UHGV virus genome: UHGV-0196339
Length of the DNA stretch: 35,119 nucleotides
DNA from: a virus
Reading direction: 5' to 3' (one strand)
Shown here: piece by piece, positions 10-14,957 of the stretch
Layout: each line of letters starts with the position of its first letter
Numbering within the stretch: the stretch's first letter is position 1
Notes under the pieces: model-generated
The model's input: only the letters and a program-made list of their open reading frames with translations
What the model was told of the DNA's origin: nothing
The model's database searches: none
Position numbers and translations under genes: made by a program

Positions 10-477
10 TTATTGTTTAATGGCGTTTTCTATCCATGTCGCCAAATTGTTCTTGATATCGCTATAAGCGTCGTTAAAGTTAGGTTCATATACGAGTGGT
101 TTAATTACTCGATCGCCTCGCTTAAATGTAAATTGGTCGAAAGGATTCGGTCCTTTTGTCCCATAGCCGTTACGAGGGCATTTCAGTCGATGAATATAAA
201 TACCCACCACAGCCTTACCCTCTTTCCAGGCTCTTTCGATCTCATACTTGACCCATGGGCGATTAGCCGTTTGACTCCCGATCAGTACTACTAAGCAGGA
301 TTTGCCATTTAAGCTCTGATTAATCCAATTCTTCACGCCCTGCTCAGTTCGTTTAATTTGTTCCCAAGTATTTGGGCTGACCGGTTCATCCCCCTCCAGC
401 ACTCCCATGTTACGAATCTGCTGTACCCGCATAACATCGTTATCAAAGTGAAAGCTGTAAAATACCTTACGTTTCAT
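10..477 (-). CDS. thsB: Thoeris ThsB, TIR-domain protein
   Basis: 155 aa. N-terminal RKVFYSFHFDND, LVVLIGSQTANRPWVKYEI and KGPNPFD blocks match the ThsB TIR family. ATG lies 2 nt after the thsA stop, with an AGGAGG SD inside the thsA 3' end. AT-rich. Confidence 0.88.
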   Translation of the reverse strand: MKRKVFYSFHFDNDVMRVQQIRNMGVLEGDEPVSPNTWEQIKRTEQGVKNWINQSLNGKSCLVVLIGSQTANRPWVKYEIERAWKEGKAVVGIYIHRLKCPRNGYGTKGPNPFDQFTFKRGDRVIKPLVYEPNFNDAYSDIKNNLATWIENAIKQ

Positions 478-479
478 AT

Positions 480-1946
480 CTAACCTCCTAGTTTCTTTAA
501 AATTTCTAAAACTTTCATTTCGATATTTGCCCGATTAGCAGAGAGATCTGCAAGCTGAGCAACTTCCTTTTCCAACCAAGGGTACCGGACAAAATGTTTA
601 CTTGGATCCGTCAGCATCTCGTCAGCTAGTTCCTTGGCCATATAACCAGTGACGCCAAGTGGAAGCACGACAACCCCTGTTTCCTGAGCAATTTGAAACT
701 CCCTTCGGACCCCATCAGCATTAACGATTCGACCATCATGGAGTTTATTCCCAAAAAGGAATATAGCGATTCCAGAAAGACCAATCATACGCTGCCGATA
801 TTCGTCCCATAGCTCGCTCAGGGCTTTATCGTTTGATGAGTGTTGAGGGAATGGCCGCATGATAAGTTGCTCTTCTGAGTACTTATCAGGCTTAGAATAA
901 ATGGCTTCAAGAGCTCCGTTGATGACCGCACTACCAATACCCCATCCAAACCCATTGACAACTCGATAGCCATTCTTCACCAAAGATGACGAAAGTATGT
1001 GTACAAAGTTTAGTGCTTCCTGTTTGTCCCAAGCGCCATACTCTTCTGCACTACCAGATATAAATATGGTCTTCTTGAGGAAGCGACTCTCAATCTCTTT
1101 CAATATAAGTGGAATATCATCGTACTCGTTTACTAATACAGCCTGAATGCCAAAACGGAGCAAATCGCGAATATGATGTTCTTGCCTACGCTGCCTATAC
1201 ATAGCGCCAGCTTCATCTTCATTTCCTTGCGGCAGAGAGGGTTCCTTACGAAGAAAGCAGTAGTGTCTACGACGATGCTTCTCCGGAACATGCAATCGGC
1301 TCAATATGTAATCAAGATTAGGATCAGTAAAACTGAAGCCAATAAATAAGAATGTCTTAGAAATCAAATCTCCACTCAATGCTGTAACAAACCCCTCATG
1401 GGTCTTGTAGTACTGCTCATACTGAGCTTTATAAAGTATGGCGTCACCTGGCGAGCTAACATCACCATGCATTTTGTAAACAACAGCATCTCGTTTAGGA
1501 CGAGTGGAAATAAGATCATCGGTTCTGCGTTTAATATCTGCGACACGGTAGTTTTCTTTGAGACTATCTTCAATCAAAGTGTCATAGTTGGTTGTCCAAT
1601 AAGTTCTAATGGGTAGTCTAGCAAGGATTTTATGGGCTTCGGAAGGTTCCGCTTGCTCCGAGAATTCCTCTAGGATTTTTCTAGCTAAACCAGTTGAGCT
1701 GTTGTTCTTGTTGACATGGTATTGTGCAACCGAAATTAAGTCGTGCTCTAGCTCAACAGAAAGGCCTAATTCTTCAGCAATTTCACGCAGCAGTTCACTC
1801 CAATTAACGAAGCCGCTGGTTCTAGATAGGCCCGCACCAGCAAAAACGGCGGCAACCCCTTCTTCGAGATCCTTCACATAAGTCCTGATAAAAGCTTCAA
1901 CTTCAGCCGAAAACTGAACACTCATATTTTTAGACAATCCGGTCAA
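480..1946 (-). CDS. thsA: Thoeris ThsA, SIR2 (NADase) + SLOG domain protein
   Basis: 488 aa. SIR2 motifs FAGAGLS, TTNYD, YKMHGD, FIGFSFTDPNLDYILSR. C-terminal SLOG-like region (FISGSAEEYG, GFGWGIGS). Operon partner of thsB. Confidence 0.9.
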   Translation of the reverse strand: MTGLSKNMSVQFSAEVEAFIRTYVKDLEEGVAAVFAGAGLSRTSGFVNWSELLREIAEELGLSVELEHDLISVAQYHVNKNNSSTGLARKILEEFSEQAEPSEAHKILARLPIRTYWTTNYDTLIEDSLKENYRVADIKRRTDDLISTRPKRDAVVYKMHGDVSSPGDAILYKAQYEQYYKTHEGFVTALSGDLISKTFLFIGFSFTDPNLDYILSRLHVPEKHRRRHYCFLRKEPSLPQGNEDEAGAMYRQRRQEHHIRDLLRFGIQAVLVNEYDDIPLILKEIESRFLKKTIFISGSAEEYGAWDKQEALNFVHILSSSLVKNGYRVVNGFGWGIGSAVINGALEAIYSKPDKYSEEQLIMRPFPQHSSNDKALSELWDEYRQRMIGLSGIAIFLFGNKLHDGRIVNADGVRREFQIAQETGVVVLPLGVTGYMAKELADEMLTDPSKHFVRYPWLEKEVAQLADLSANRANIEMKVLEILKKLGG

Positions 1947-4098: not shown

Positions 4099-5100
4099 TT
4101 ACCCTCTATTATCAAAAGGATTCAATTCAACAGCAGCCTCTAAATGACCTGGAGCAAAATGCGCATAACGCATAGTCATTTTTATATCGCTATGCCCCAG
4201 TATTTTTTGCAACACAAGAATATTTCCGCCCCGCATCATAAAATGACTGGCAAACGTGTGACGTAGCACATGAGTTAATTGCCCATCAGGAAGCTCGATC
4301 TTCGCTCTCTTAATTGCAGCGTCAAAAGCCTCATAACATGGTGAAAATAGCGCTCCTCGTTTTTTAGGAAGCATAGCCTGCAATTGAGGTGAAATAGGTA
4401 CAGTGCGGTTCTTCTTTCCTTTAGTTTTAACAAATGTGATTCGACCGGGCAGTACTTGAGATTGCTTTAATCCTTCTGCTTCACTCCACCGAGCACCAGT
4501 CGCAAGCCCAATACGGACAACAACCCCCAAATCTTTATTCCGTGACTCATCACACGAAATCAGAAGGCGTTCAATCTCATCTACATACAGAAACGCCAGT
4601 TCCTTTTCTTCCTCACGAAACTTGCGAATACCAGTCAGAGGGTTTTCACCAGACCACTCCCCAAGGCGCTTCAGTTCGGCAAAAACAGCATGTAGATATG
4701 ACTGCTCGCGATTAACGGTTGCTTCACTAAGTTTTTTCTTCCCCTTGGGATTCCATTCTCCTGATAGCCTTCTTTCCCGATAAGTAGCAAACATATTTTT
4801 GTCAAACTGAGAAGCAAATGGATCTCCCAGCCTAGAACAAATCGCCTCAAGTTTGACTTTGCGCTCTGCACCAGAGGACAAGGTTTTACCGTACATCTCA
4901 AACCAACGAGCAATCAACTCAGAAAGACGAGGACCAGAACCATCTTGAAACTCGTCTCCAACTCTACTATTCATTAAACGGCGCTCATAAGAGAGCGCCT
5001 CACTTTTTGTCGCAAACTGTTTACGAATGCGTTTTCCCGATGCCCCGTAGGGATAACATTCGCAAAGCCATTTACCTGATGGAATCTTACGAACCGACAT
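4099..5100 (-). CDS. int: Tyrosine recombinase / phage integrase
   Basis: 333 aa. C-terminal catalytic region with HVLRHTFAS, GHSDIKMTMRYAH (R-H-R-Y family). Adjacent to the tRNA-derived att core. Confidence 0.95.
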   Translation of the reverse strand: MSVRKIPSGKWLCECYPYGASGKRIRKQFATKSEALSYERRLMNSRVGDEFQDGSGPRLSELIARWFEMYGKTLSSGAERKVKLEAICSRLGDPFASQFDKNMFATYRERRLSGEWNPKGKKKLSEATVNREQSYLHAVFAELKRLGEWSGENPLTGIRKFREEEKELAFLYVDEIERLLISCDESRNKDLGVVVRIGLATGARWSEAEGLKQSQVLPGRITFVKTKGKKNRTVPISPQLQAMLPKKRGALFSPCYEAFDAAIKRAKIELPDGQLTHVLRHTFASHFMMRGGNILVLQKILGHSDIKMTMRYAHFAPGHLEAAVELNPFDNRG

Positions 5101-5105
5101 TTTAG

Positions 5106-5453
5106 TTACTTATCACATAAATCAAATGCAGCCTTAGTGACATCCCCCAGATTCTTTTTTAACCCTGGGGCGGCATCATTATCTAGCCAAAATGGATTAT
5201 TGTTATCTAACGGTAACGCACCAAATGTTTTACCTTTTATTCGAGCCAAACCTGTAAGCGCATATAACTTATTATCGTCAAAATTCATCACATAAGGATT
5301 ACCATCAAGACACTGTAATTGAACCTCATCAGTATTAAATGGCCATACCCCATTGAAACTCTCACGTTCAATAGTTTTAAAAGGCATTGCGACGGCAGAA
5401 AAAGAAAACATAAATAAAAAAGTAACTAATAGTTGAATCTTTTTTACTTTCAT
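5106..5453 (-). CDS. Hypothetical secreted (signal-peptide) protein, lysogeny-operon cargo
   Basis: 115 aa. N-terminal MKVKKIQLLVTFLFMFSFSAVA signal peptide, two Cys in the mature part. GAGGT SD. 5-nt gap to int, AT-rich. Confidence 0.6.
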   Translation of the reverse strand: MKVKKIQLLVTFLFMFSFSAVAMPFKTIERESFNGVWPFNTDEVQLQCLDGNPYVMNFDDNKLYALTGLARIKGKTFGALPLDNNNPFWLDNDAAPGLKKNLGDVTKAAFDLCDK

Positions 5454-5482: not shown

Positions 5483-6133
5483 TTACAAATTAAAAAACAT
5501 CCTAGAAATGGCACCGCCTACCAAAACCCCTACGCAGATAAAGAATATTATTTCTTTTGGATAAAGTCGGATTAATTCTGAAGCACGAAGTCGGACTTCT
5601 GGTAAGGTCGAATTCTCTGTGTTGCTTGATACCGATTGTTGCTCTAACCACGACAATGCAGACTGTAACTGAGAACGAGTAAGATCGTTTAAACGTCCTG
5701 TACCGAAATTGATATGGCAATACCGCAGAAGTTTTTGTCGAAGTCCACAGTCTTCACTGTTACGTAGTAATAAACTTACAAGAGTCTTACAGGCATCATG
5801 ATCTTTACATCGCTCAAGCATTGCATGCAGAAAACTCTCCGCTGTTTTATATTGATTTACTGTCATATCATCAATACCAGCTACACCAATCTCCGCATGT
5901 ACTTTTTGCCAAATAATAAACGCTTCAGTATTGCTAGCTTCTGCAATAGCAGCAACCAAGCTATTTAGCTCCTTACGCTGAGCCTTAAGCAAAGGGCGAT
6001 CGTCATCATCATTATTCGAAGGGATTGCGATATTGACGATATGAGAACCATCATATCGATCTATCTGAATATTCTTTTCGTGAAAATCACGCCCAGCAAC
6101 GCGATTGTTTGAACCGTTTGAGTTGACGGCCAT
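5483..6133 (-). CDS. Hypothetical tail-anchored membrane protein, lysogeny-operon cargo
   Basis: 216 aa. C-terminal hydrophobic helix IIFFICVGVLVGGAISRMFF. N-terminus SNNRVAGRDFHE repeats the repressor C-terminal motif. GGGAGG SD, 15-nt gap to the repressor stop. Confidence 0.6.
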   Translation of the reverse strand: MAVNSNGSNNRVAGRDFHEKNIQIDRYDGSHIVNIAIPSNNDDDDRPLLKAQRKELNSLVAAIAEASNTEAFIIWQKVHAEIGVAGIDDMTVNQYKTAESFLHAMLERCKDHDACKTLVSLLLRNSEDCGLRQKLLRYCHINFGTGRLNDLTRSQLQSALSWLEQQSVSSNTENSTLPEVRLRASELIRLYPKEIIFFICVGVLVGGAISRMFFNL

Positions 6134-6148
6134 GTCACCTCCCTACTA

Positions 6149-6553
6149 TCACCTACCCTTAGTTTCGTTATAGTCACGACCAGCGATACGGTTATTACCA
6201 CCAGAAATATTTAACTCACGTCCTGATGGCTGAGTTTCCTTTTCACTGACCGCACCTTTTAAAGCCCCGATCACCGCGTTTTTCACATCTAACGAAGCTG
6301 CTCGAAAGCGAGTAATCAACTCCTGCTCATCATCGTTATAAGTTTCAGGTGAGTGAATTCCCAACACAACATACTGAACATCAAGGCCAAAACGAGACAG
6401 CGCTGCCAAATACGCAGCATCAGGAAAGCTATCTCCTTTCTCATATCTAAGCTGAGTTAGCTTTTTGACTCCACCAATGTCGCTCATAGCAACTTGACTA
6501 AGCCCCAATCTTTCCCTTTCCTCACGCAACCGCTGACCAATATCATTTTTCAT
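6149..6553 (-). CDS. XRE-family HTH repressor (cI-like immunity repressor)
   Basis: 134 aa. N-terminal HTH (LGLSQVAMSDIGGVKKLTQLRYEKG). Divergent from the early operon. First gene of the repressor-cargo-int operon. Confidence 0.75.
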   Translation of the reverse strand: MKNDIGQRLREERERLGLSQVAMSDIGGVKKLTQLRYEKGDSFPDAAYLAALSRFGLDVQYVVLGIHSPETYNDDEQELITRFRAASLDVKNAVIGALKGAVSEKETQPSGRELNISGGNNRIAGRDYNETKGR

Positions 6554-6628
6554 ACAAAAACCTTGACAAGTATCTTTTTTGATACCAAAATAATTTCACG
6601 AGCTATTAGATGATCACAATATACCACT
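6554..6628. promoter_or_regulatory. Divergent early/repressor promoter-operator region
   Basis: 75-nt intergenic region between divergent genes. TTGACA at 6564-6569. Palindrome GTATC-tttttt-GATAC at 6571-6586 is a candidate operator. Confidence 0.4.
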
Positions 6629-6835
6629 ATGAAACAAGTTCTTCACGATACCAGATCACGCATTCCGCGTAACACCGCCACAGGTCCAAGACTGGCACTT
6701 CGGCTGTCCCTCGAGGAGCGAGCCGTCATTGATGAAATGGCAGCTAAAGAGCAACGCTCATCCTCTAACATGGCGCGCATGATCTTCCTTCGCGGCCTAG
6801 AGCTAACCCAGAAAGAACAAAACAAATCTTCCTGA
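6629..6835 (+). CDS. Small ribbon-helix-helix-like early regulator (Cox/Cro-position protein)
   Basis: 68 aa. LALRLSLEERAVIDEMAAKEQRSSSNMARMIFLRGLE resembles an RHH beta-alpha-alpha fold. First ORF of the rightward early operon. No clear SD. Confidence 0.45.
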   Translation: MKQVLHDTRSRIPRNTATGPRLALRLSLEERAVIDEMAAKEQRSSSNMARMIFLRGLELTQKEQNKSS

Positions 6836-8640: not shown

Positions 8641-11406
8641 ATGACGGCAGAGTACATCAGGGACTGGCAACAACCGCGCCACGCAGTGGGGCGTGAAGGA
8701 ACGGGGATCCCCGCTCCTGAATCCGCGCTTTCCTCCTGGCTGGATGCCTACCGGGCAGAGAACGAGCGCCGCCAGGAAATGGCTGATGCGGCGTTCTCCG
8801 CCACGCCGCTGGGCAACCTGATTAATAAAAGCCTGGACGCACAGGAAAAACAGGACAAAACCATCACACTGGCAGGAGACGCCAGAAAACAGGCACGTGG
8901 CGCGGTGGATGAAGCCATGGCCTCGCTGCGCCTGCTGCCGACCTATCTGCGCGATCCGCTTATTCGCCACCTCTCCTTCCTGCGCAAAAAACAGGAAGCC
9001 GATCGTCAGAAAGGAAAAAACGCCAGGCAGGCAGAACGCTATGCGCGTGGGACCCTGCGCAAAATATTCGAACGTCTGGAGCGCACCGATCACCGCTGGC
9101 TGACACCGGGTTATCGCTCCCTTGCCGGACGCGAACGCCTGGACAATTTGCTTTACCTGCCGCAGCTCAACAAACACCAGATACAGACGCTGGCCACCAT
9201 GACGGCGGCGATGTTCAGCAGCACCTTCGAAAAACTCTGCGATGGCTTTGGCGCGACCGATGGCGAGCTGACCATGGATGTAACCCTGAAGGCGTATCAG
9301 ATGCTGGCCCGCATAGCGTTACACCTGCACGCCATGCCTCCACATTATGACGCACTGACAACAGACAAAGACCGGAGGAACGAACCGGACACGGAGCTGC
9401 TGCCGGGCGCAATCCTTCGCCTGACCTGTGCGGAATGGTGGAAACGCAAACTGTGGCTGTTACGTTGCGAGTGGCGGGAAGAACAACTCCGCGCCGCCTG
9501 TCTGGTTTCCAGAAAGACATCACCCTATCTGAGCCAGGACGCGTTAAGCGAGTTTCGCGCACAGCGCGAGAAAACACGCGATTTCCTGAAAAGTTTCATG
9601 CTGGAAAACGAAGACGGGTTCACGATTGATCTCGAGACAGTGTATTACGCGGGAGTAAGTAACCCGGTTCACCGTAAGGCAGAAATGATGGCCACCATGA
9701 AGGGGCTGGAACTTCTGGCCGAAGCCCGTGGCGACAGAGCGGTGTTTCTGACTGTCACCTGCCCGTCAAAATACCACGCAACAACGGAGAACGGTCATCC
9801 GAATCCCAAATGGAACGGGGCCACTATGCGCGACTCCAGCGATTACCTGGTTAACACGTTTTTTGCAGCGGTCCGCAAAAAACTGAACCGCGACGGCCTG
9901 CGCTGGTATGGCATCCGCACGGTGGAGCCTCATCATGACGGCACGGTGCACTGGCACATGATGGTTTTTGCTCATCCTGACGAGATTGAAACCATCGTGT
10001 CCCACGTCTGCGATATTGCCATTCAGGAAGACCGCCACGAGCTGGGCGATGACATAACTCCGCGTTTTAAGGCGGAGTACGTCGACGGCTCAAAAGGCAC
10101 ACCAACCAGCTATATCGCGACCTACATCGGAAAAAACCTGGACAGCCGCGCCGTGGATGGCATCGACCCGAAAACGGGCAAACCACGCGTTGACCACGAA
10201 ACCGGAAAATCAATGGCCGAGAGCGTGGAGCGCGCCATCGGCTGGGCGCGCCTTCACCGGGTCCGCCAGTTCCAGTTCTTTGGCATCCCCTCCCGTCAGG
10301 TGTGGCGTGAACTGCGCCGCCTTGCCAGCCAGATGGCACGCAACCCGGAAGGCCCGCAACGGCTGAAGGATGACGCAATGGATGCGGTACTCGCTGCCGC
10401 TGATGCCGGGTGTTTTGCCTCCTACATTGAAAAACAGGGTGGCGTACTTGTTCCACGCAAGGACTACCTGATTCGCACCGCCTACGACCTCGCAGATGAG
10501 CTGAACGATTACGGCGAACAGAGCGTACAGATTTACGGGATCTGGTCACCACTCATCGGGGAATCCTCCCGTGTGTGCACGCACCCGGATAACTGGAAGC
10601 TGGTAAGACGTAAACCGGAAGCGGAAGACAGCACCCGCGAAAATGATTTTGACCTTCAGGGCGGCCCTGCCGCCCCTTGGACTCGTGGCAATAACTGTCC
10701 CCGTGTACAGGAAACGGACAACAACGGGACAGAACAGCAGGAAGAACGGCCAGCACTGTGGCCGCAGCTTCCTGACGGCGTTGATGTGGATGAATGGATG
10801 CGCTCACTGAAACGGCACGAACGCCGGGCGCTGATGCGTTCGCTTCGTGACAAACAGGCAAAAAACAGCAGTGATGAAATGCAGAGCTGGACACAGAGCC
10901 GCAAACAGCAGCGGCCTTTGCCTGATAACCACGAATTACTCGCTAAAGAATGGCGGGAATCTGCCGAATCTCTCGGCCTGCATATCGGTGAACAGCAGAT
11001 GCAGCACCTGTTACGAGGCGGCAGTCTGTACGTTGACGGCAGCATCATTGCACCGCAGGGATTTGAAATTGTACGCAAACCAGATACCCGACCGGACAGC
11101 CGAATCACGCAGCTCTGGCAGCGCCTGAGCCGTAATCACGGCGTAAACAGCACGGAAATCCGCCATAACCCGGTTTCCAGCTATCTGAAACAGCTCGGGG
11201 CATCAGACCCTGAAGCCGCTGCACGCCTGGCATCCACAATTCAGCAGGACCAGAGCACCATGAAAACTCCCGTTACCGTGCTTTCTGACATGCTGCGCGC
11301 CATCCGTGACGCAGAGCACGCACAGAGAATCAATGAAACCACTGAACGCGCACGTCACAAGGCGGGTCTGTTGCAGGACAAAGGCAATAGCGAGAAGAAA
11401 AAATAA
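8641..11406 (+). CDS. A: Gene A-type rolling-circle replication initiation endonuclease
   Basis: 921 aa. TVTCPSKYH, VEPHHDGTVHWHMMVF (HUH motif) and YIATYIGKN (catalytic Tyr motif) match P2 gpA. Long low-complexity C-terminal extension. Confidence 0.9.
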   Translation: MTAEYIRDWQQPRHAVGREGTGIPAPESALSSWLDAYRAENERRQEMADAAFSATPLGNLINKSLDAQEKQDKTITLAGDARKQARGAVDEAMASLRLLPTYLRDPLIRHLSFLRKKQEADRQKGKNARQAERYARGTLRKIFERLERTDHRWLTPGYRSLAGRERLDNLLYLPQLNKHQIQTLATMTAAMFSSTFEKLCDGFGATDGELTMDVTLKAYQMLARIALHLHAMPPHYDALTTDKDRRNEPDTELLPGAILRLTCAEWWKRKLWLLRCEWREEQLRAACLVSRKTSPYLSQDALSEFRAQREKTRDFLKSFMLENEDGFTIDLETVYYAGVSNPVHRKAEMMATMKGLELLAEARGDRAVFLTVTCPSKYHATTENGHPNPKWNGATMRDSSDYLVNTFFAAVRKKLNRDGLRWYGIRTVEPHHDGTVHWHMMVFAHPDEIETIVSHVCDIAIQEDRHELGDDITPRFKAEYVDGSKGTPTSYIATYIGKNLDSRAVDGIDPKTGKPRVDHETGKSMAESVERAIGWARLHRVRQFQFFGIPSRQVWRELRRLASQMARNPEGPQRLKDDAMDAVLAAADAGCFASYIEKQGGVLVPRKDYLIRTAYDLADELNDYGEQSVQIYGIWSPLIGESSRVCTHPDNWKLVRRKPEAEDSTRENDFDLQGGPAAPWTRGNNCPRVQETDNNGTEQQEERPALWPQLPDGVDVDEWMRSLKRHERRALMRSLRDKQAKNSSDEMQSWTQSRKQQRPLPDNHELLAKEWRESAESLGLHIGEQQMQHLLRGGSLYVDGSIIAPQGFEIVRKPDTRPDSRITQLWQRLSRNHGVNSTEIRHNPVSSYLKQLGASDPEAAARLASTIQQDQSTMKTPVTVLSDMLRAIRDAEHAQRINETTERARHKAGLLQDKGNSEKKK

Positions 11407-11586: not shown

Positions 11587-12708
11587 ATGGGCGACTTAGG
11601 TGGTATTCAGTCAGATTTAGCCCAACTAGTTAGACTGGTAATAACTGAACAGTATGATGACGTTCGGTTATATGTCGCTCGCTTGGTGCGTAAATATCGG
11701 GAAACTATGCCTGCTCTATCCGAGCAGCTTGATCTTTATCTACGAAATAAACCGCAAAAGCCTGCACAAAGCCTGCGTAAGGTTACCGCACCAAAACAAG
11801 CGCTGCCTCAAACCATGCCTGTGGACGAGGAGTCAAGGCTTACCTTGCTTAAAGCACCAAATGAAAAGATTGTGAGCAAACCTCTACTGTCCAGTCAGAT
11901 AGAAGACTCACTGGATCAAATTATTCTTGAGCGGAAGCACATCGATCGCCTCAAGACTCTCGGCTTACAACCAACACGCTCTGCCATTTTTGTTGGCCCT
12001 CCGGGTGTAGGTAAAACACTTACGGCAAGCTGGTTAGCTCAGAAATTAGGGGTTCCTTTTTACGTTCTTGATTTAACGGCAGTAATGAGCAGCTATCTGG
12101 GCAAAAGCGGAAATAACCTTCGGGCAGCTCTAGATTTTGCGAAGAAAGGGCCGTGCGTTCTTCTGTTAGATGAAATTGATTCAATCGCCAAAAAGAGAAG
12201 TGATGATTCTGATGTTGGAGAATTAAAAAGACTTGTTACAGTGATACTCCAGGAGGTTGACGAATGGCCGTCTTCTAGTTTGCTACTTGCTGCAACTAAC
12301 TTCGCTGAGTTGATTGATCCAGCACTATGGAGACGTTTTGATTTAGTGCTCAATTTTGAGAAACCAGATAGCGAAAGTATTAAAGAAGCAATTAAACGCT
12401 TTTCAGGTCCCGACTACGCGATTTTTGCACGTTGGATAGATCTACTGGCTATTATGTTCAAAAATGAATCTTTTAGTAATATTGAGCGTTCTATCAACAA
12501 ATTCCGACGTTCGGTCGCTTTAGGTATTTCCTCAGATGAAGAGTTGATTGGGTCGTTCATTAAAGATGGTTTATCAGAATTAGACAGGAATGAACGTAAA
12601 GAAATTGCAGTTACTCTAAAAAGAAATTCTAAATTATCCCAGCATGCCATATCAGACTTAACCGGAGTCAGTAGGGATACAATTAGAAAATACAGTCAAA
12701 AAATGTAA
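11587..12708 (+). CDS. AAA+ ATPase with C-terminal HTH-like segment (IetA-like)
   Basis: 373 aa. Walker A GPPGVGKT, Walker B LLLDEID, sensor-1 ATN, Arg finger region WRRFD. C-terminal LSQHAISDLTGVSRDTIRKY resembles an HTH. AT-rich. Confidence 0.8.
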   Translation: MGDLGGIQSDLAQLVRLVITEQYDDVRLYVARLVRKYRETMPALSEQLDLYLRNKPQKPAQSLRKVTAPKQALPQTMPVDEESRLTLLKAPNEKIVSKPLLSSQIEDSLDQIILERKHIDRLKTLGLQPTRSAIFVGPPGVGKTLTASWLAQKLGVPFYVLDLTAVMSSYLGKSGNNLRAALDFAKKGPCVLLLDEIDSIAKKRSDDSDVGELKRLVTVILQEVDEWPSSSLLLAATNFAELIDPALWRRFDLVLNFEKPDSESIKEAIKRFSGPDYAIFARWIDLLAIMFKNESFSNIERSINKFRRSVALGISSDEELIGSFIKDGLSELDRNERKEIAVTLKRNSKLSQHAISDLTGVSRDTIRKYSQKM

Positions 12709-12731
12709 TACAGCATAGATAAGGAGTATGT

Positions 12732-14957
12732 ATGGCGAAAACTAATTTTCTGATTGGACGCGGCGAATTATTAACCAGCGATATTCCTGGTCCTAAAAGA
12801 GTGCCCGGAAAAGCTGAGGTTTATTCTCTTTACGAATCGAAACAACGTTTATTGCCGCAAATTGCATCTACTATAGAAAATTTTGATGATTTACCCAGTC
12901 AGGCATGTCCTTATGATTATGCTGTGGCTAAGTTGACGTTGAATCCGAGCTATATTGCACGCTCTTTTTTTCCTGCAAAAATGCTTAAGTCTACCGGGTT
13001 AACGTCTATTGGCAGCAGGACGGTAAAAATTACGCCTCAAAGCTGGAAGCGAAAAGTTACTGTGTCAGAAGTAACTACGACACAAATGTTTGTTGCTGGT
13101 AAAAGAGAATCCTTCAAAGAGTTACCTCATTGGGTGTCAGGACTCAAAGAGTTTTCTGACGAAGCGATTGATTTTGCACGCATAGAACGGTTCGATGCCT
13201 ATTTACCCGAAGAGCGTATTATTACCATTGGTGAGCAGGATTCTTCGTATTTTGAGGTTGGTGTTCATTTACTGCCAGATAATGAACAAGACTTGGTTCA
13301 GCAACAATTTGTTCAGTTTGCATCAAATTTGAACATCAAAGTACATACTTCATTAGCTTTTACCGCTGGTACATTATGGTTCGTGCCAATCCAGGCCGAT
13401 AGAATTACTATTAGTAAGCTTGCGAAATTTACATTTGTACGAGTAATAAGACCGGTTCCAAGATTGCGTGGGATTAGACCAATACAAAGGAACTACGGTC
13501 CTTTAGCTCAGTGTAAATTGCCTGCTGAGGGCCCCGTATCTTCAGAAATAAAAGTTGCGATTCTTGATGGCGGTTTACCATCAGAGCACGCTATATCGCC
13601 ATGGTTAAAATCCTATAGAGTTTTGGACGATCATGCAGAGGATGATCCAGACGGTTTAGAACATGGTTTAGCTGTGTCTTCAGCCTTTTTATTTGGACCA
13701 ATAAGTAATAAATCGGAAGCGAAAAGACCATACTCTTATATTGATAACTTAAGAGTTTTGGACAACAAGACCTGCCAAGAAGATCCGCTGGAACTATATC
13801 GAAATTTGGGCTTTATTGAAGAGGTATTGTTGTCTCGCCAGTATCAGTTTATCAATCTAAGTTTAGGTCCAGACCTACCAATTGAAGATACGGAAGTTCA
13901 TGCATGGACTTCCGTTATTGATGATTTGTTAAGTGATGGTGAAACATTAATGACTGTTGCTGTTGGCAACAATGGAGAAATGGATCGCAAGTCTGGTAAT
14001 GCAAGAATTCAAGTACCAGCCGATTGCGTTAATGCTCTTGCTGTTGGTGCTTGTGATACAGTTAATGATACGGAATGGAAACGAGCACCATATAGCGCCA
14101 TTGGGCCAGGCAGAAGTCCTGGCGTGATGAAACCGGATTTAGTTGCGTTTGGTGGTGACACAGACGAGTACTTTCATGTTTTAGGTAAAGGTAAGAAGCC
14201 TGTAATCATACCCCAGCTAGGAACAAGCTTTGCCTCTCCTTACGCCTTACGAGCAGCTGTTGGTGTTCGGGCAATTTTAGGGAACGATTTGAGCCTACTA
14301 GCAATCAAAGCTTTGTTAATTCATGCGTCAAAACAGCTTGATCATCCTTGTACAGAAGTTGGCTGGGGAAAACTTCCTGAAGACTTGAACGACATTATAG
14401 TCAGCCCTGATGGTGTTGCCCGTATCGTCTACCAAGGTGAATTGAAACCAGGAAAATACTTACGCGCTCCTCTTCCAATACCTGAAGGTGGCTTGAAAGG
14501 TAGAATAAACTTAGCGGCAACTTTCTGTTATGCAACAACCACTGATCCACAAGACCCAGCTTCCTATACAAAAGCTGGTTTGGAAGTGACATTCCGGCCA
14601 AATGATTCAAAAATCAAAGACGGAAAACAAAATGCTGAAACCAAGGGATTCTTTGAACTGGCCAAATATTCAACTGAAAGTGAGCGACGTTCTGACATGG
14701 GCAAATGGGAGACCGTCTTACATAATTCGAAGAACATGCTCGGTTCAACTCTAAAAAATCCTGTATTTGACATTCATTATAACGCTCGTGAGGCCGGTGC
14801 AAGCATAGCCAGCCATAAGGCAGAAAAAATCAAGTATGCTCTTATAATTACCATTAAGGCATCAAAGCACCAAGACCTGTATAACGAAATTTTACGTACT
14901 TATAATCAGGTGCTCGTGCCAATTCAACCGCAAACATCAATTCCTATTCGTTCGTAA
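12732..14957 (+). CDS. S8-family subtilisin-like serine peptidase with N- and C-terminal extensions (IetS-like)
   Basis: 741 aa. Subtilase motifs: Asp in VAILDGG, His in LEHGLAV, oxyanion Asn in VGNNG, Ser in GTSFASP. AAGGAG SD 5 nt upstream, 23 nt after the ATPase stop. Confidence 0.85.
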   Translation: MAKTNFLIGRGELLTSDIPGPKRVPGKAEVYSLYESKQRLLPQIASTIENFDDLPSQACPYDYAVAKLTLNPSYIARSFFPAKMLKSTGLTSIGSRTVKITPQSWKRKVTVSEVTTTQMFVAGKRESFKELPHWVSGLKEFSDEAIDFARIERFDAYLPEERIITIGEQDSSYFEVGVHLLPDNEQDLVQQQFVQFASNLNIKVHTSLAFTAGTLWFVPIQADRITISKLAKFTFVRVIRPVPRLRGIRPIQRNYGPLAQCKLPAEGPVSSEIKVAILDGGLPSEHAISPWLKSYRVLDDHAEDDPDGLEHGLAVSSAFLFGPISNKSEAKRPYSYIDNLRVLDNKTCQEDPLELYRNLGFIEEVLLSRQYQFINLSLGPDLPIEDTEVHAWTSVIDDLLSDGETLMTVAVGNNGEMDRKSGNARIQVPADCVNALAVGACDTVNDTEWKRAPYSAIGPGRSPGVMKPDLVAFGGDTDEYFHVLGKGKKPVIIPQLGTSFASPYALRAAVGVRAILGNDLSLLAIKALLIHASKQLDHPCTEVGWGKLPEDLNDIIVSPDGVARIVYQGELKPGKYLRAPLPIPEGGLKGRINLAATFCYATTTDPQDPASYTKAGLEVTFRPNDSKIKDGKQNAETKGFFELAKYSTESERRSDMGKWETVLHNSKNMLGSTLKNPVFDIHYNAREAGASIASHKAEKIKYALIITIKASKHQDLYNEILRTYNQVLVPIQPQTSIPIRS

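Follow-up and report, generated by a model that had tools for sequence, protein, structure and literature searches.

The window (the whole stretch of DNA analyzed here, the 35,119 nucleotides of UHGV virus genome UHGV-0196339) is an Escherichia coli P2-like prophage that encodes a Phage_GPA replication protein and a tyrosine integrase, and its immunity region is 96% identical to Escherichia phage 520873. The lysogenic operon lies on the minus strand and encodes, in order, an XRE-type helix-turn-helix (HTH) repressor, a 216-residue membrane protein (hereafter the partner), a DUF2511/YebY-like secreted protein and the integrase; no terminator-like site was found on this strand from 6553 to 4099. 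Here, we describe a short motif that the C-terminal tail of the repressor has in common with the N-terminus of the partner. The 1.5 kb segment carrying this motif pair is present in 521 of 5,426 complete E. coli genomes (~10%).

The repressor ends ...LNISGGNNRIAGRDYNETKGR (also written ...RELNISGGNNRIAGRDYNETKGR, up to the stop), and the next protein starts MAVNSNGSNNRVAGRDFHEKNIQI (shorter form MAVNSNGSNNRVAGRDFHE). In the best local alignment, LNISGGNNRIAGRDYNE against VNSNGSNNRVAGRDFHE, 10 of 17 residues are identical. A preliminary description of this DNA had singled out an 11-residue core common to the two termini; within it, 8 of 11 residues are identical and 2 more are conservative changes, and the similarity extends upstream of the core as (V/I)N(V/S)xGxxNR. 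The BLOSUM62 local score of 62 compares with a mean of 28.9 (standard deviation 4.7) for shuffled versions of the membrane protein, and 1 of 20,000 shuffles reaches 62 (p ~5e-5 from a Gumbel fit of the shuffle scores), which bears out the claim of a motif common to both proteins. The two copies lie ~90 nucleotides (nt) apart on the minus strand within 6080-6200, and six-frame translation of the whole 35 kb window revealed the motif pattern at these two sites only, with no third copy. The preliminary description had further argued that the codons mostly differ and that conservation therefore acts on the protein rather than reflecting a recent DNA duplication. Both points hold: the window pair uses the same codon at only 4 of its 10 identical residues, and across 34 repressor/partner pairs 148 of 317 identical aligned residues share a codon (47%) at a nucleotide identity of 59%, which argues against recent DNA duplication or gene conversion. 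An explanation at the level of RNA (pairing between the two segments) appears unlikely: the copies are direct rather than complementary, and conservation is at the amino-acid level. Finally, the two open reading frames (ORFs) share one frame, yet they are split by three consecutive in-frame stops (TGA TAG TAG), and a read-through or fusion product is therefore implausible.

In both protein families, few parts are as well conserved as the motif. In all 120 membrane-protein homologues among the matches listed (from Escherichia, Klebsiella, Serratia, Erwinia, Enterobacter and other genera, at 58-97% identity), the N-terminus carries MxVNSxGxxNR(V/I/A/T)(A/S)GRD(F/Y)xE, bar scattered single-residue substitutions. 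In a 53-sequence alignment of partner homologues, G7, N10, R11, D16 and E19 are invariant, G14 and R15 are nearly so, and mean column identity is 70%. Enterobacterales homologues of the repressor, for their part, end (I/V)N(V/I)(S/T)GxG(N/Q)R(V/I)AGRD(Y/F)(N/H)ExKK, and at 37 paired loci of the AGRD class each of A, G, R and D occurs in 34-37 of the 37 sequences, in the tails as well as in the partner N-termini. The preliminary description had named absence of the motif from homologues of either protein, or equally good matches scattered through unrelated proteins, as grounds for abandoning its claim. Because both proteins have homologues that retain the motif, the claim stands on the former count, and matches did not scatter through unrelated phage proteins either: besides the six-frame translation, a tblastn search of the 21-residue motif against 50,697 phage genomes returned repressor/downstream pairs only. 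Among the 8000 candidates of a 5.8-billion-protein set that had most words in common with it, a padded motif profile yielded fragments and mini-proteins consisting of the motif plus a transmembrane (TM) segment; on that scale, other families may carry the motif too.

The pairing extends across lineages. Loci were fetched with a repressor profile, 80 from one-genome-per-species contigs and 80 from viral contigs, and the partner was assigned by an unbiased rule as the longest same-strand ORF starting -60 to +150 nt from the repressor stop. Under this fixed rule, the repressor tail matched the downstream N-terminus significantly (i.e., above the 99th percentile of composition-matched shuffles) at 70 of 115 unique loci. 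The 45 loci without significance are mostly Pseudomonas chromosomal HTH paralogues that have no G/N/Q-rich tail and lie beside a response-regulator gene. At most fetched loci, the N-terminus of the immediately downstream protein has the same motif variant as the repressor tail, and the variants change together. Thus, GNAQIGQASAGDIVN occurs with GGAQIDQAAAGDINN; other pairs (repressor tail, then partner N-terminus) are TVDYGNAQIGQASAGDIVN and TVSFGGAQIDQAAAGDINN in Jeongeupia (L019), QQINGPISGGVAGRDFVQ and QEINGDVEGGIAGRDIVR in Rhodocyclaceae (L013), KQVFKGSVSGVAGRDVVK and KQTFKGPVGDVAGNDVVK (L018), FTQHGSGMQVGHVS and FEQTGSGTQFGQVS (L033), and MEIKGDNNVQI and MKITGNGNTQV in Aggregatibacter (L022). 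Named phages carry the pair as well. In the Pseudomonas Mu-like phage B3, ORF18 ends ...ISVTGDGNRTAGRDFHERKE and ORF20 starts VNIEVTGSNNIVAGRDFIENHL, while in Burkholderia phage KS10 the pair is gp13 (ASGSGITQVG) and gp12 (ASGFGIIQVAG), the latter described as being without a significant match in the KS10 genome paper (PMC2628397). In Ralstonia phage RSA1, the pair is ORF35 and ORF33; there (L083, 2453-5086), an insertion sequence (IS) transposase, ORF34, sits between the repressor ORF35 and the motif-matched membrane partner ORF33, and the phage is described as active.

Among 33 curated pairs, the mean score was 44.5 for cognate and 26.4 for non-cognate combinations, and the cognate partner ranked first in 12 of the 33. 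The difference is also seen within single host genera: in Pseudomonas, cognate pairs scored 51 against at most 29 (B3) and 41 against at most 28 (L056), and in Burkholderia 41 against 20 (KS10) and 36 against 18 (L043). The presence of distinct, self-matched motif classes in one host genus makes a single conserved host reader less likely. The gene pairs are collinear, with gaps mostly between -4 and about 30 nt, and the repressor C-terminus and the partner N-terminus therefore emerge adjacent to each other in time and space. A search of the literature on phage repressors with membrane proteins, on amyloid with repressor, and on B3 and KS10 found no earlier description of a repressor/membrane-protein motif pair. 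The motif pair is thus a widespread two-gene module of temperate Proteobacteria phages, including P2-like and Mu-like phages, that reaches well beyond a single prophage. Selection maintains the likeness of the two copies even as the motif itself diversifies between lineages.

Table 1 Features of the immunity region and of its surroundings, with positions in the window.
Feature	Position	Strand	Basis or remark
Predicted immunity repressor gene, 134 residues	6149-6553	-	ORF; XRE-type HTH at residues 1-65, helices 74-102, disordered tail 103-134
Repressor tail motif, residues 114-130	6164-6214	-	Local alignment, conservation in homologues
Basic C-terminal end of the repressor, TKGR	6152-6163	-	Homologues usually have KK, KKK or RKRK
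Gene junction: TGA TAG TAG, GGAGGT Shine-Dalgarno, GAC, partner ATG	6134-6151	-	Read from the sequence
Membrane-anchored partner gene, 216 residues	5483-6133	-	ORF; PHROG phrog_5825 (function-unknown family)
Partner N-terminal motif copy 1, residues 3-19	6077-6127	-	Local alignment; AlphaFold2 pLDDT <50
Partner degenerate motif copy 2, residues 24-38, IDRYDGSHIVNIAIP	6020-6064	-	Comparison with relatives
Flk-like helical domain, partner residues 45-170	5624-6001	-	NCBIfam Flk, BLASTP, AlphaFold2
C-terminal transmembrane tail anchor, partner residues 192-215	5489-5560	-	AlphaFold2 helix and hydropathy
DUF2511/YebY-like secreted protein	5106-5453	-	Signal peptide; same lysogenic operon, between partner gene and int
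Tyrosine integrase	4099-5100	-	Last gene of the lysogenic operon
Promoter-like site	6563-6591	+	
Arc-like (ribbon-helix-helix) early regulator	6629-6835	+	PHROG phrog_3431 (1e-28); divergent; position of Cro, Cox or Apl
Phage_GPA replication protein	8641-11406		Pfam 2e-129
IetA and IetS defence pair	11587-14957	+	IetA, AAA ATPase (PADLOC 1e-77); IetS, S8 subtilase (1.2e-51)
Thoeris system	10-1946	-	Left flank, outside the prophage
ThsA (SIR2 plus STALD/SLOG)	480-1946	-	9e-78
ThsB (TIR protein)	10-477	-	1e-23

The first gene product of the operon is, by its HTH domain and its position at the switch, an immunity repressor, with repression activity predicted. The HTH matches Pfam HTH_31 at 8e-5 (HTH_31, HTH_19 and HTH_3 all score below their gathering scores), and the protein also matches an NCBIfam DicA/RstR-like model and PHROG phrog_8 (3.6e-14). 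The gene occupies the position of a lysis-lysogeny switch (i.e., divergent from the Arc-like early gene, upstream of int and in one operon with it), and the homologues in KS10, Ps59, Mana and PhiBP82.3 carry the annotation repressor. An AlphaFold2 model of the monomer shows a five-helix HTH fold with a predicted local distance difference test score (pLDDT) of ~90 at residues 10-100 and <50 at residues 103-134. The C-terminal part consists of two helices and the disordered tail, with no Pfam match to Peptidase_S24 in the repressor, and the missing S24 peptidase domain rules out an SOS-cleavable repressor of the LexA/lambda CI type. In relatives, the tail is laid out as a variable A/S/G-rich spacer, then the motif, then the basic end. 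More distant relatives carry different tails (e.g., FNGDISGQFAGNQIINNG or FHGSVGQSVAGNITN), and tailless relatives also exist; the tail (and with it the partner) is therefore an add-on to a working repressor core. The Pseudomonas chromosomal paralogues (many loci, L031, L034, L036-L079), which lie just upstream of a response regulator that starts MIRVLVVDDHDLVRTGITRML, show that this HTH family also has a separate role outside phages.

In the AlphaFold2 model of the partner monomer, residues 1-40 have a pLDDT below ~50 and are followed by a helical domain (pLDDT 84-94) and a TM helix; the motif-bearing segments of both proteins are thus predicted to be disordered. Many Flk-like partners have a clear second tandem GRD unit (e.g., FVGRDLVNISIP and NRVAGRDFNEENTRIDQFVGRDLVNISIP), which in the window has degenerated to RYDGSHIVNIAIP. 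The helical domain resembles that of the flagellar regulator Flk of Salmonella and E. coli, an established tail-anchored protein (PMC6794478): the NCBIfam Flk model (NF007987, an equivalog) matches one domain copy at 5.5e-16, with 58.8 bits against a cutoff of 353, and BLASTP against E. coli Flk gives 28% identity (E 1e-10). The two proteins are alike in this homologous domain and in the C-terminal tail anchor. Flk, in contrast, is a chromosomal protein of 331 residues that contains the domain twice and starts MIQPISGPPPGQ, without an N-terminal motif. We thus rejected the partner as a true Flk, given a score far under the equivalog cutoff, a single domain copy and a different N-terminus. The Flk-like helical domain is also found C-terminal to Rha, AntA+ORF6C and Bro-N domains in phage proteins of the regulatory or antirepressor type (P0346, P0372 and P0373), which links chromosomal Flk to a phage domain family. 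The partner had no match in PADLOC and none to an NCBIfam toxin or defence family, and sequence searches of the PDB found no relatives.

Across loci, the partners fall into at least four unrelated architectures, all of which retain the N-terminal motif: Flk-like tail-anchored proteins of about 190-230 residues; proteins of 260-340 residues in total that combine a Flk-like domain, a coiled coil, a TM segment and a periplasmic Cys-containing domain; proteins of 140-195 residues with two TM segments and a C-terminal coiled coil (as in B3 ORF20); and proteins with a zinc ribbon and TM segments. The smallest partners (57-74 residues) include mini-partners that consist of the motif and one TM helix only (L026, with 57 residues, and P0400-P0402). 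A crude hydropathy rule assigns one or more TM segments to 61 of the 70 partners that carry the motif. Because the architectures vary while motif and anchor persist, the constant features are a cytoplasmic motif at the N-terminus and membrane anchoring. In long partners (L010, L011, L019, L043, P0334, P0376 and RSA1 ORF33), the C-terminal part is periplasmic and contains the common module C-x-(F/Y)-(D/G)-G-(K/Q)-x-(Y/F)-x-x-G-(S/T)...C. This Cys module matches Pfam DUF1496 weakly and could be a sensor domain. At three loci (L017, 3995-4721, from Janthinobacterium; L163; L164), the repressor still has a tail that is rich in G and Q and ends in basic residues, and the downstream ORF has only a TM segment and a periplasmic CxFDGKxY...C domain, with neither motif nor helical domain; it looks like a truncated partner.

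Among the neighboring genes, the DUF2511/YebY-like gene is specific to enterobacteria and lies outside the conserved pair, which it adjoins in annotated E. coli relatives; the gene order at most non-Enterobacterales loci differs from this arrangement. The window also contains two defence systems. The IetA/IetS pair follows directly after replication gene A, a typical cargo hotspot of P2-like phages, and a Thoeris system (ThsA and ThsB) lies in the left flank.

Given two matching motifs that are conserved and co-vary, that lie in segments predicted to be disordered, and that belong to a repressor and a membrane-anchored protein of one operon, we favor the reading that direct motif-to-motif binding couples the repressor to a membrane-anchored modulator, to which we assign a probability of about 0.5 on sequence evidence. 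Each copy would be a disordered, strand-forming segment punctuated by glycines, and the two would associate by beta-strand pairing. The HTH and helices of the repressor core would suffice to repress transcription, while the flexible tail (spacer, motif and basic end) and the partner would form an accessory module that puts part of the repressor pool at the inner membrane face, under the control of the partner. This control would be set by the partner's variable domains (the Flk/antirepressor-type helical domain, the coiled coils and the periplasmic Cys domain). Placement of the motif at the C-terminus of one product and at the N-terminus of the next would suit assembly on the polycistronic mRNA, as the two products are translationally coupled. 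The most likely purpose of such a module would be to tune repressor availability, for example as a membrane input to induction or de-repression, and it could give P2-like and Mu-like phages, whose repressors have no LexA-type self-cleavage domain, a membrane route to de-repression. We infer the direction of control and the physiological signal: variable, sensor-like domains (including periplasmic ones) and the antirepressor-type link suggest that the partner controls the repressor. Together, the matched, co-varying motifs suggest that the lysogeny switch is physically connected to the cell membrane, in a way that has no earlier description.

Several points weigh against direct pairing. Co-variation would also be expected if both copies bound a common co-evolving partner, and conservation of the AGRD(F/Y) core from Escherichia to Pseudomonas phage B3 also fits a conserved reader. 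Inside the AGRD class, no fine-scale co-variation was evident at the 37 paired loci, and some partners (KS10 gp12, L056 and L033) have no detectable TM segment. Moreover, if the two proteins are translated in roughly equimolar amounts, full sequestration would abolish immunity.

Two kinds of known system resemble a membrane-tethered repressor. In E. coli, regulators are sequestered at the membrane, as for Mlc by PtsG, MalT by MalK, and PspF/PspA with PspBC. In these systems, too, a soluble regulator is tied to a protein of the inner membrane, and transcription responds to the state of the membrane or of transport; however, they rely on folded domain interfaces and on unlinked or functionally distinct genes, whereas the interface here would be a duplicated terminal peptide of two co-translated phage proteins. 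Phage antirepressors (P22 Ant, 186 Tum, the Gifsy antirepressors, and RS1 RstC, which aggregates RstR) act on an immunity repressor without cleavage, as we propose for the partner, whose helical domain is also found in proteins of the Rha, AntA and Bro-N type. To our knowledge, the antirepressors described so far are soluble proteins that have promoters under separate control, often by LexA, and no motif in common with their target; the partner, in contrast, is membrane-anchored and co-transcribed with the repressor. An interface of this kind is not described for either membrane sequestration or antirepressor action.

An alternative is that both motifs serve as a docking site or degron for a third factor (ClpXP, Lon, FtsH, an adaptor or a phage antirepressor), with the partner acting as a decoy that sets the threshold for repressor inactivation, which was the mimicry idea of the preliminary description. 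Such a role would suit two copies that are terminal, disordered and exposed, an AGRD(F/Y) core that is conserved over wide host distances, and repressor tails that end in basic residues; ClpX is known to recognize the C-terminal tail of a phage repressor such as Mu Rep and a basic C-terminus such as that of MuA. Yet different self-matched motif classes in one host genus are hard to fit to a single conserved host reader, the window and the neighborhoods revealed neither a third carrier of the motif nor a conserved third gene, and the repressor core, which is the sole component constant across pairs, is far better conserved than the motif. The preliminary description had also suggested that the motif is a shared binding, degron or oligomerization element. 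Of these roles, co-variation across lineages and within host genera favors binding or oligomerization (mutual, or to a common co-evolving partner) over a degron for a conserved host protease, while a decoy or competitor role for the partner may be compatible with co-variation. We therefore regard recognition by a third factor as unlikely. A toxin-antitoxin-like or abortive-infection logic, in which a membrane-active effector is kept inert by the repressor tail and released on repressor loss or titration, appears very unlikely. An HTH gene upstream of a small membrane protein does resemble a type II toxin-antitoxin layout, the smallest partners are single-TM proteins, and the repressor has weak matches to MqsA- and HipB-type antitoxin HTH models. 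However, the partner matches no toxin family, the PADLOC matches of the repressor are weak and at the level of the HTH, and the membrane parts differ from one partner architecture to the next, unlike the active region of a toxin; furthermore, the E. coli genomes that hold the pair do so intact in a seemingly ordinary immunity region. Least probable of all, to the point of being barely credible, is that the motifs are a relic of tandem duplication across the gene boundary, with each copy serving its own protein (e.g., in self-association) and no cross-talk between them. The distance between the copies is the geometry of a small tandem duplication, but the copies stay alike despite large changes between lineages while synonymous sites have diverged, and independent drift would erase such similarity.

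The gene-pair layout also invites comparison with amyloid signaling, in which the C-terminus of one protein matches the N-terminus of the product of the next, collinear gene over a motif of 15-25 residues, with gene overlaps or gaps of <=10 nt (10.1101/2020.01.06.895854). Like the pairs described there and elsewhere (HET-S/NWD2, the BASS1-10 Bell/NLR pairs and Bab/Agp), the pairs described here are formed by adjacent, collinear, often overlapping genes with a G/N/Q-rich C-terminal/N-terminal motif; similarity is pair-specific across diverse families, one partner is membrane-associated, and both kinds occur in prophages. In this respect, the window and the 70 of 115 loci show the shared C-terminal/N-terminal motif in adjacent collinear genes that characterizes the FASS and BASS families. 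The carriers differ: the C-terminal motif is borne here by a DNA-binding repressor and there by a pore-forming Bell or HeLo effector, and the N-terminal motif here by a tail-anchored or TM protein and there by an NLR/STAND or Agp-type sensor. Neither carrier here matched NB-ARC, NACHT, Bell or HeLo, so the effector and sensor of FASS and BASS systems were not found. The full proteins gave no Pfam match to RHIM or a related family at E<=0.01, which, as judged from Pfam only, places the motif outside the described families (RHIM, PP, HRAM, sigma and BASS1-11), although some variants (ITQVG and AQIGQ) loosely resemble G-phi-Q-phi-G. As the carriers are different, the motif lies outside described families and fibrils are only conjectural, we do not class the pair as a member of the amyloid-signaling systems.

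By analogy with these systems, it is nonetheless conceivable, if quite improbable, that clustering of one protein nucleates a cross-beta arch that templates the other copy, so that aggregation of the repressor would lead to induction or the membrane protein would be activated. Such a change would propagate itself and act like a switch. The shared gene-pair grammar speaks for this, as does the motif itself, which is G/N/Q-rich, has short hydrophobic-alternating stretches broken by Gly and is disordered in the monomer. In addition, the motif often stands twice in tandem in the partner but once in the repressor, which recalls the two repeats of HET-s and the one of NWD2, and amyloid signaling has been demonstrated in an E. 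coli prophage-borne defence pair, Bab/Agp (BASS11; 10.1101/2024.11.07.622273). Against it stand the lack of a Pfam match to RHIM or a relative, the rather charged character of the motif (R, D, E and K), a combination of HTH repressor and tail-anchored protein that is unlike any described amyloid-signaling pair, and constitutive co-expression in lysogens, which would demand tight control of nucleation. A prion-like version, just as doubtful and again argued from analogy, would have a membrane sensor that clusters (upon envelope damage or superinfection) and templates the repressor tails into an aggregate, flipping lysogeny irreversibly.

P2-like and Mu-like temperate phages are common, and how their non-self-cleaving repressors are inactivated is poorly understood. 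If direct pairing is correct, a co-evolving peptide link would give such switches a membrane-facing input or output, and a role could be assigned to the large phage family phrog_5825 and to its analogues in B3, KS10 and RSA1; the so far unexplained cytoplasmic domain of Flk may become clearer as well. If the segments engage in simple beta-pairing, they would provide a compact, portable tag for membrane tethering of proteins. If the link is instead amyloid-like, amyloid signaling would extend from cell-death effectors to the control of transcription, and a prion-like switch would provide an induction pathway for those P2-like and Mu-like phages that are not SOS-induced. Whichever reading holds, the search rule (adjacent genes with a C-terminal/N-terminal motif match) works outside NLR systems.

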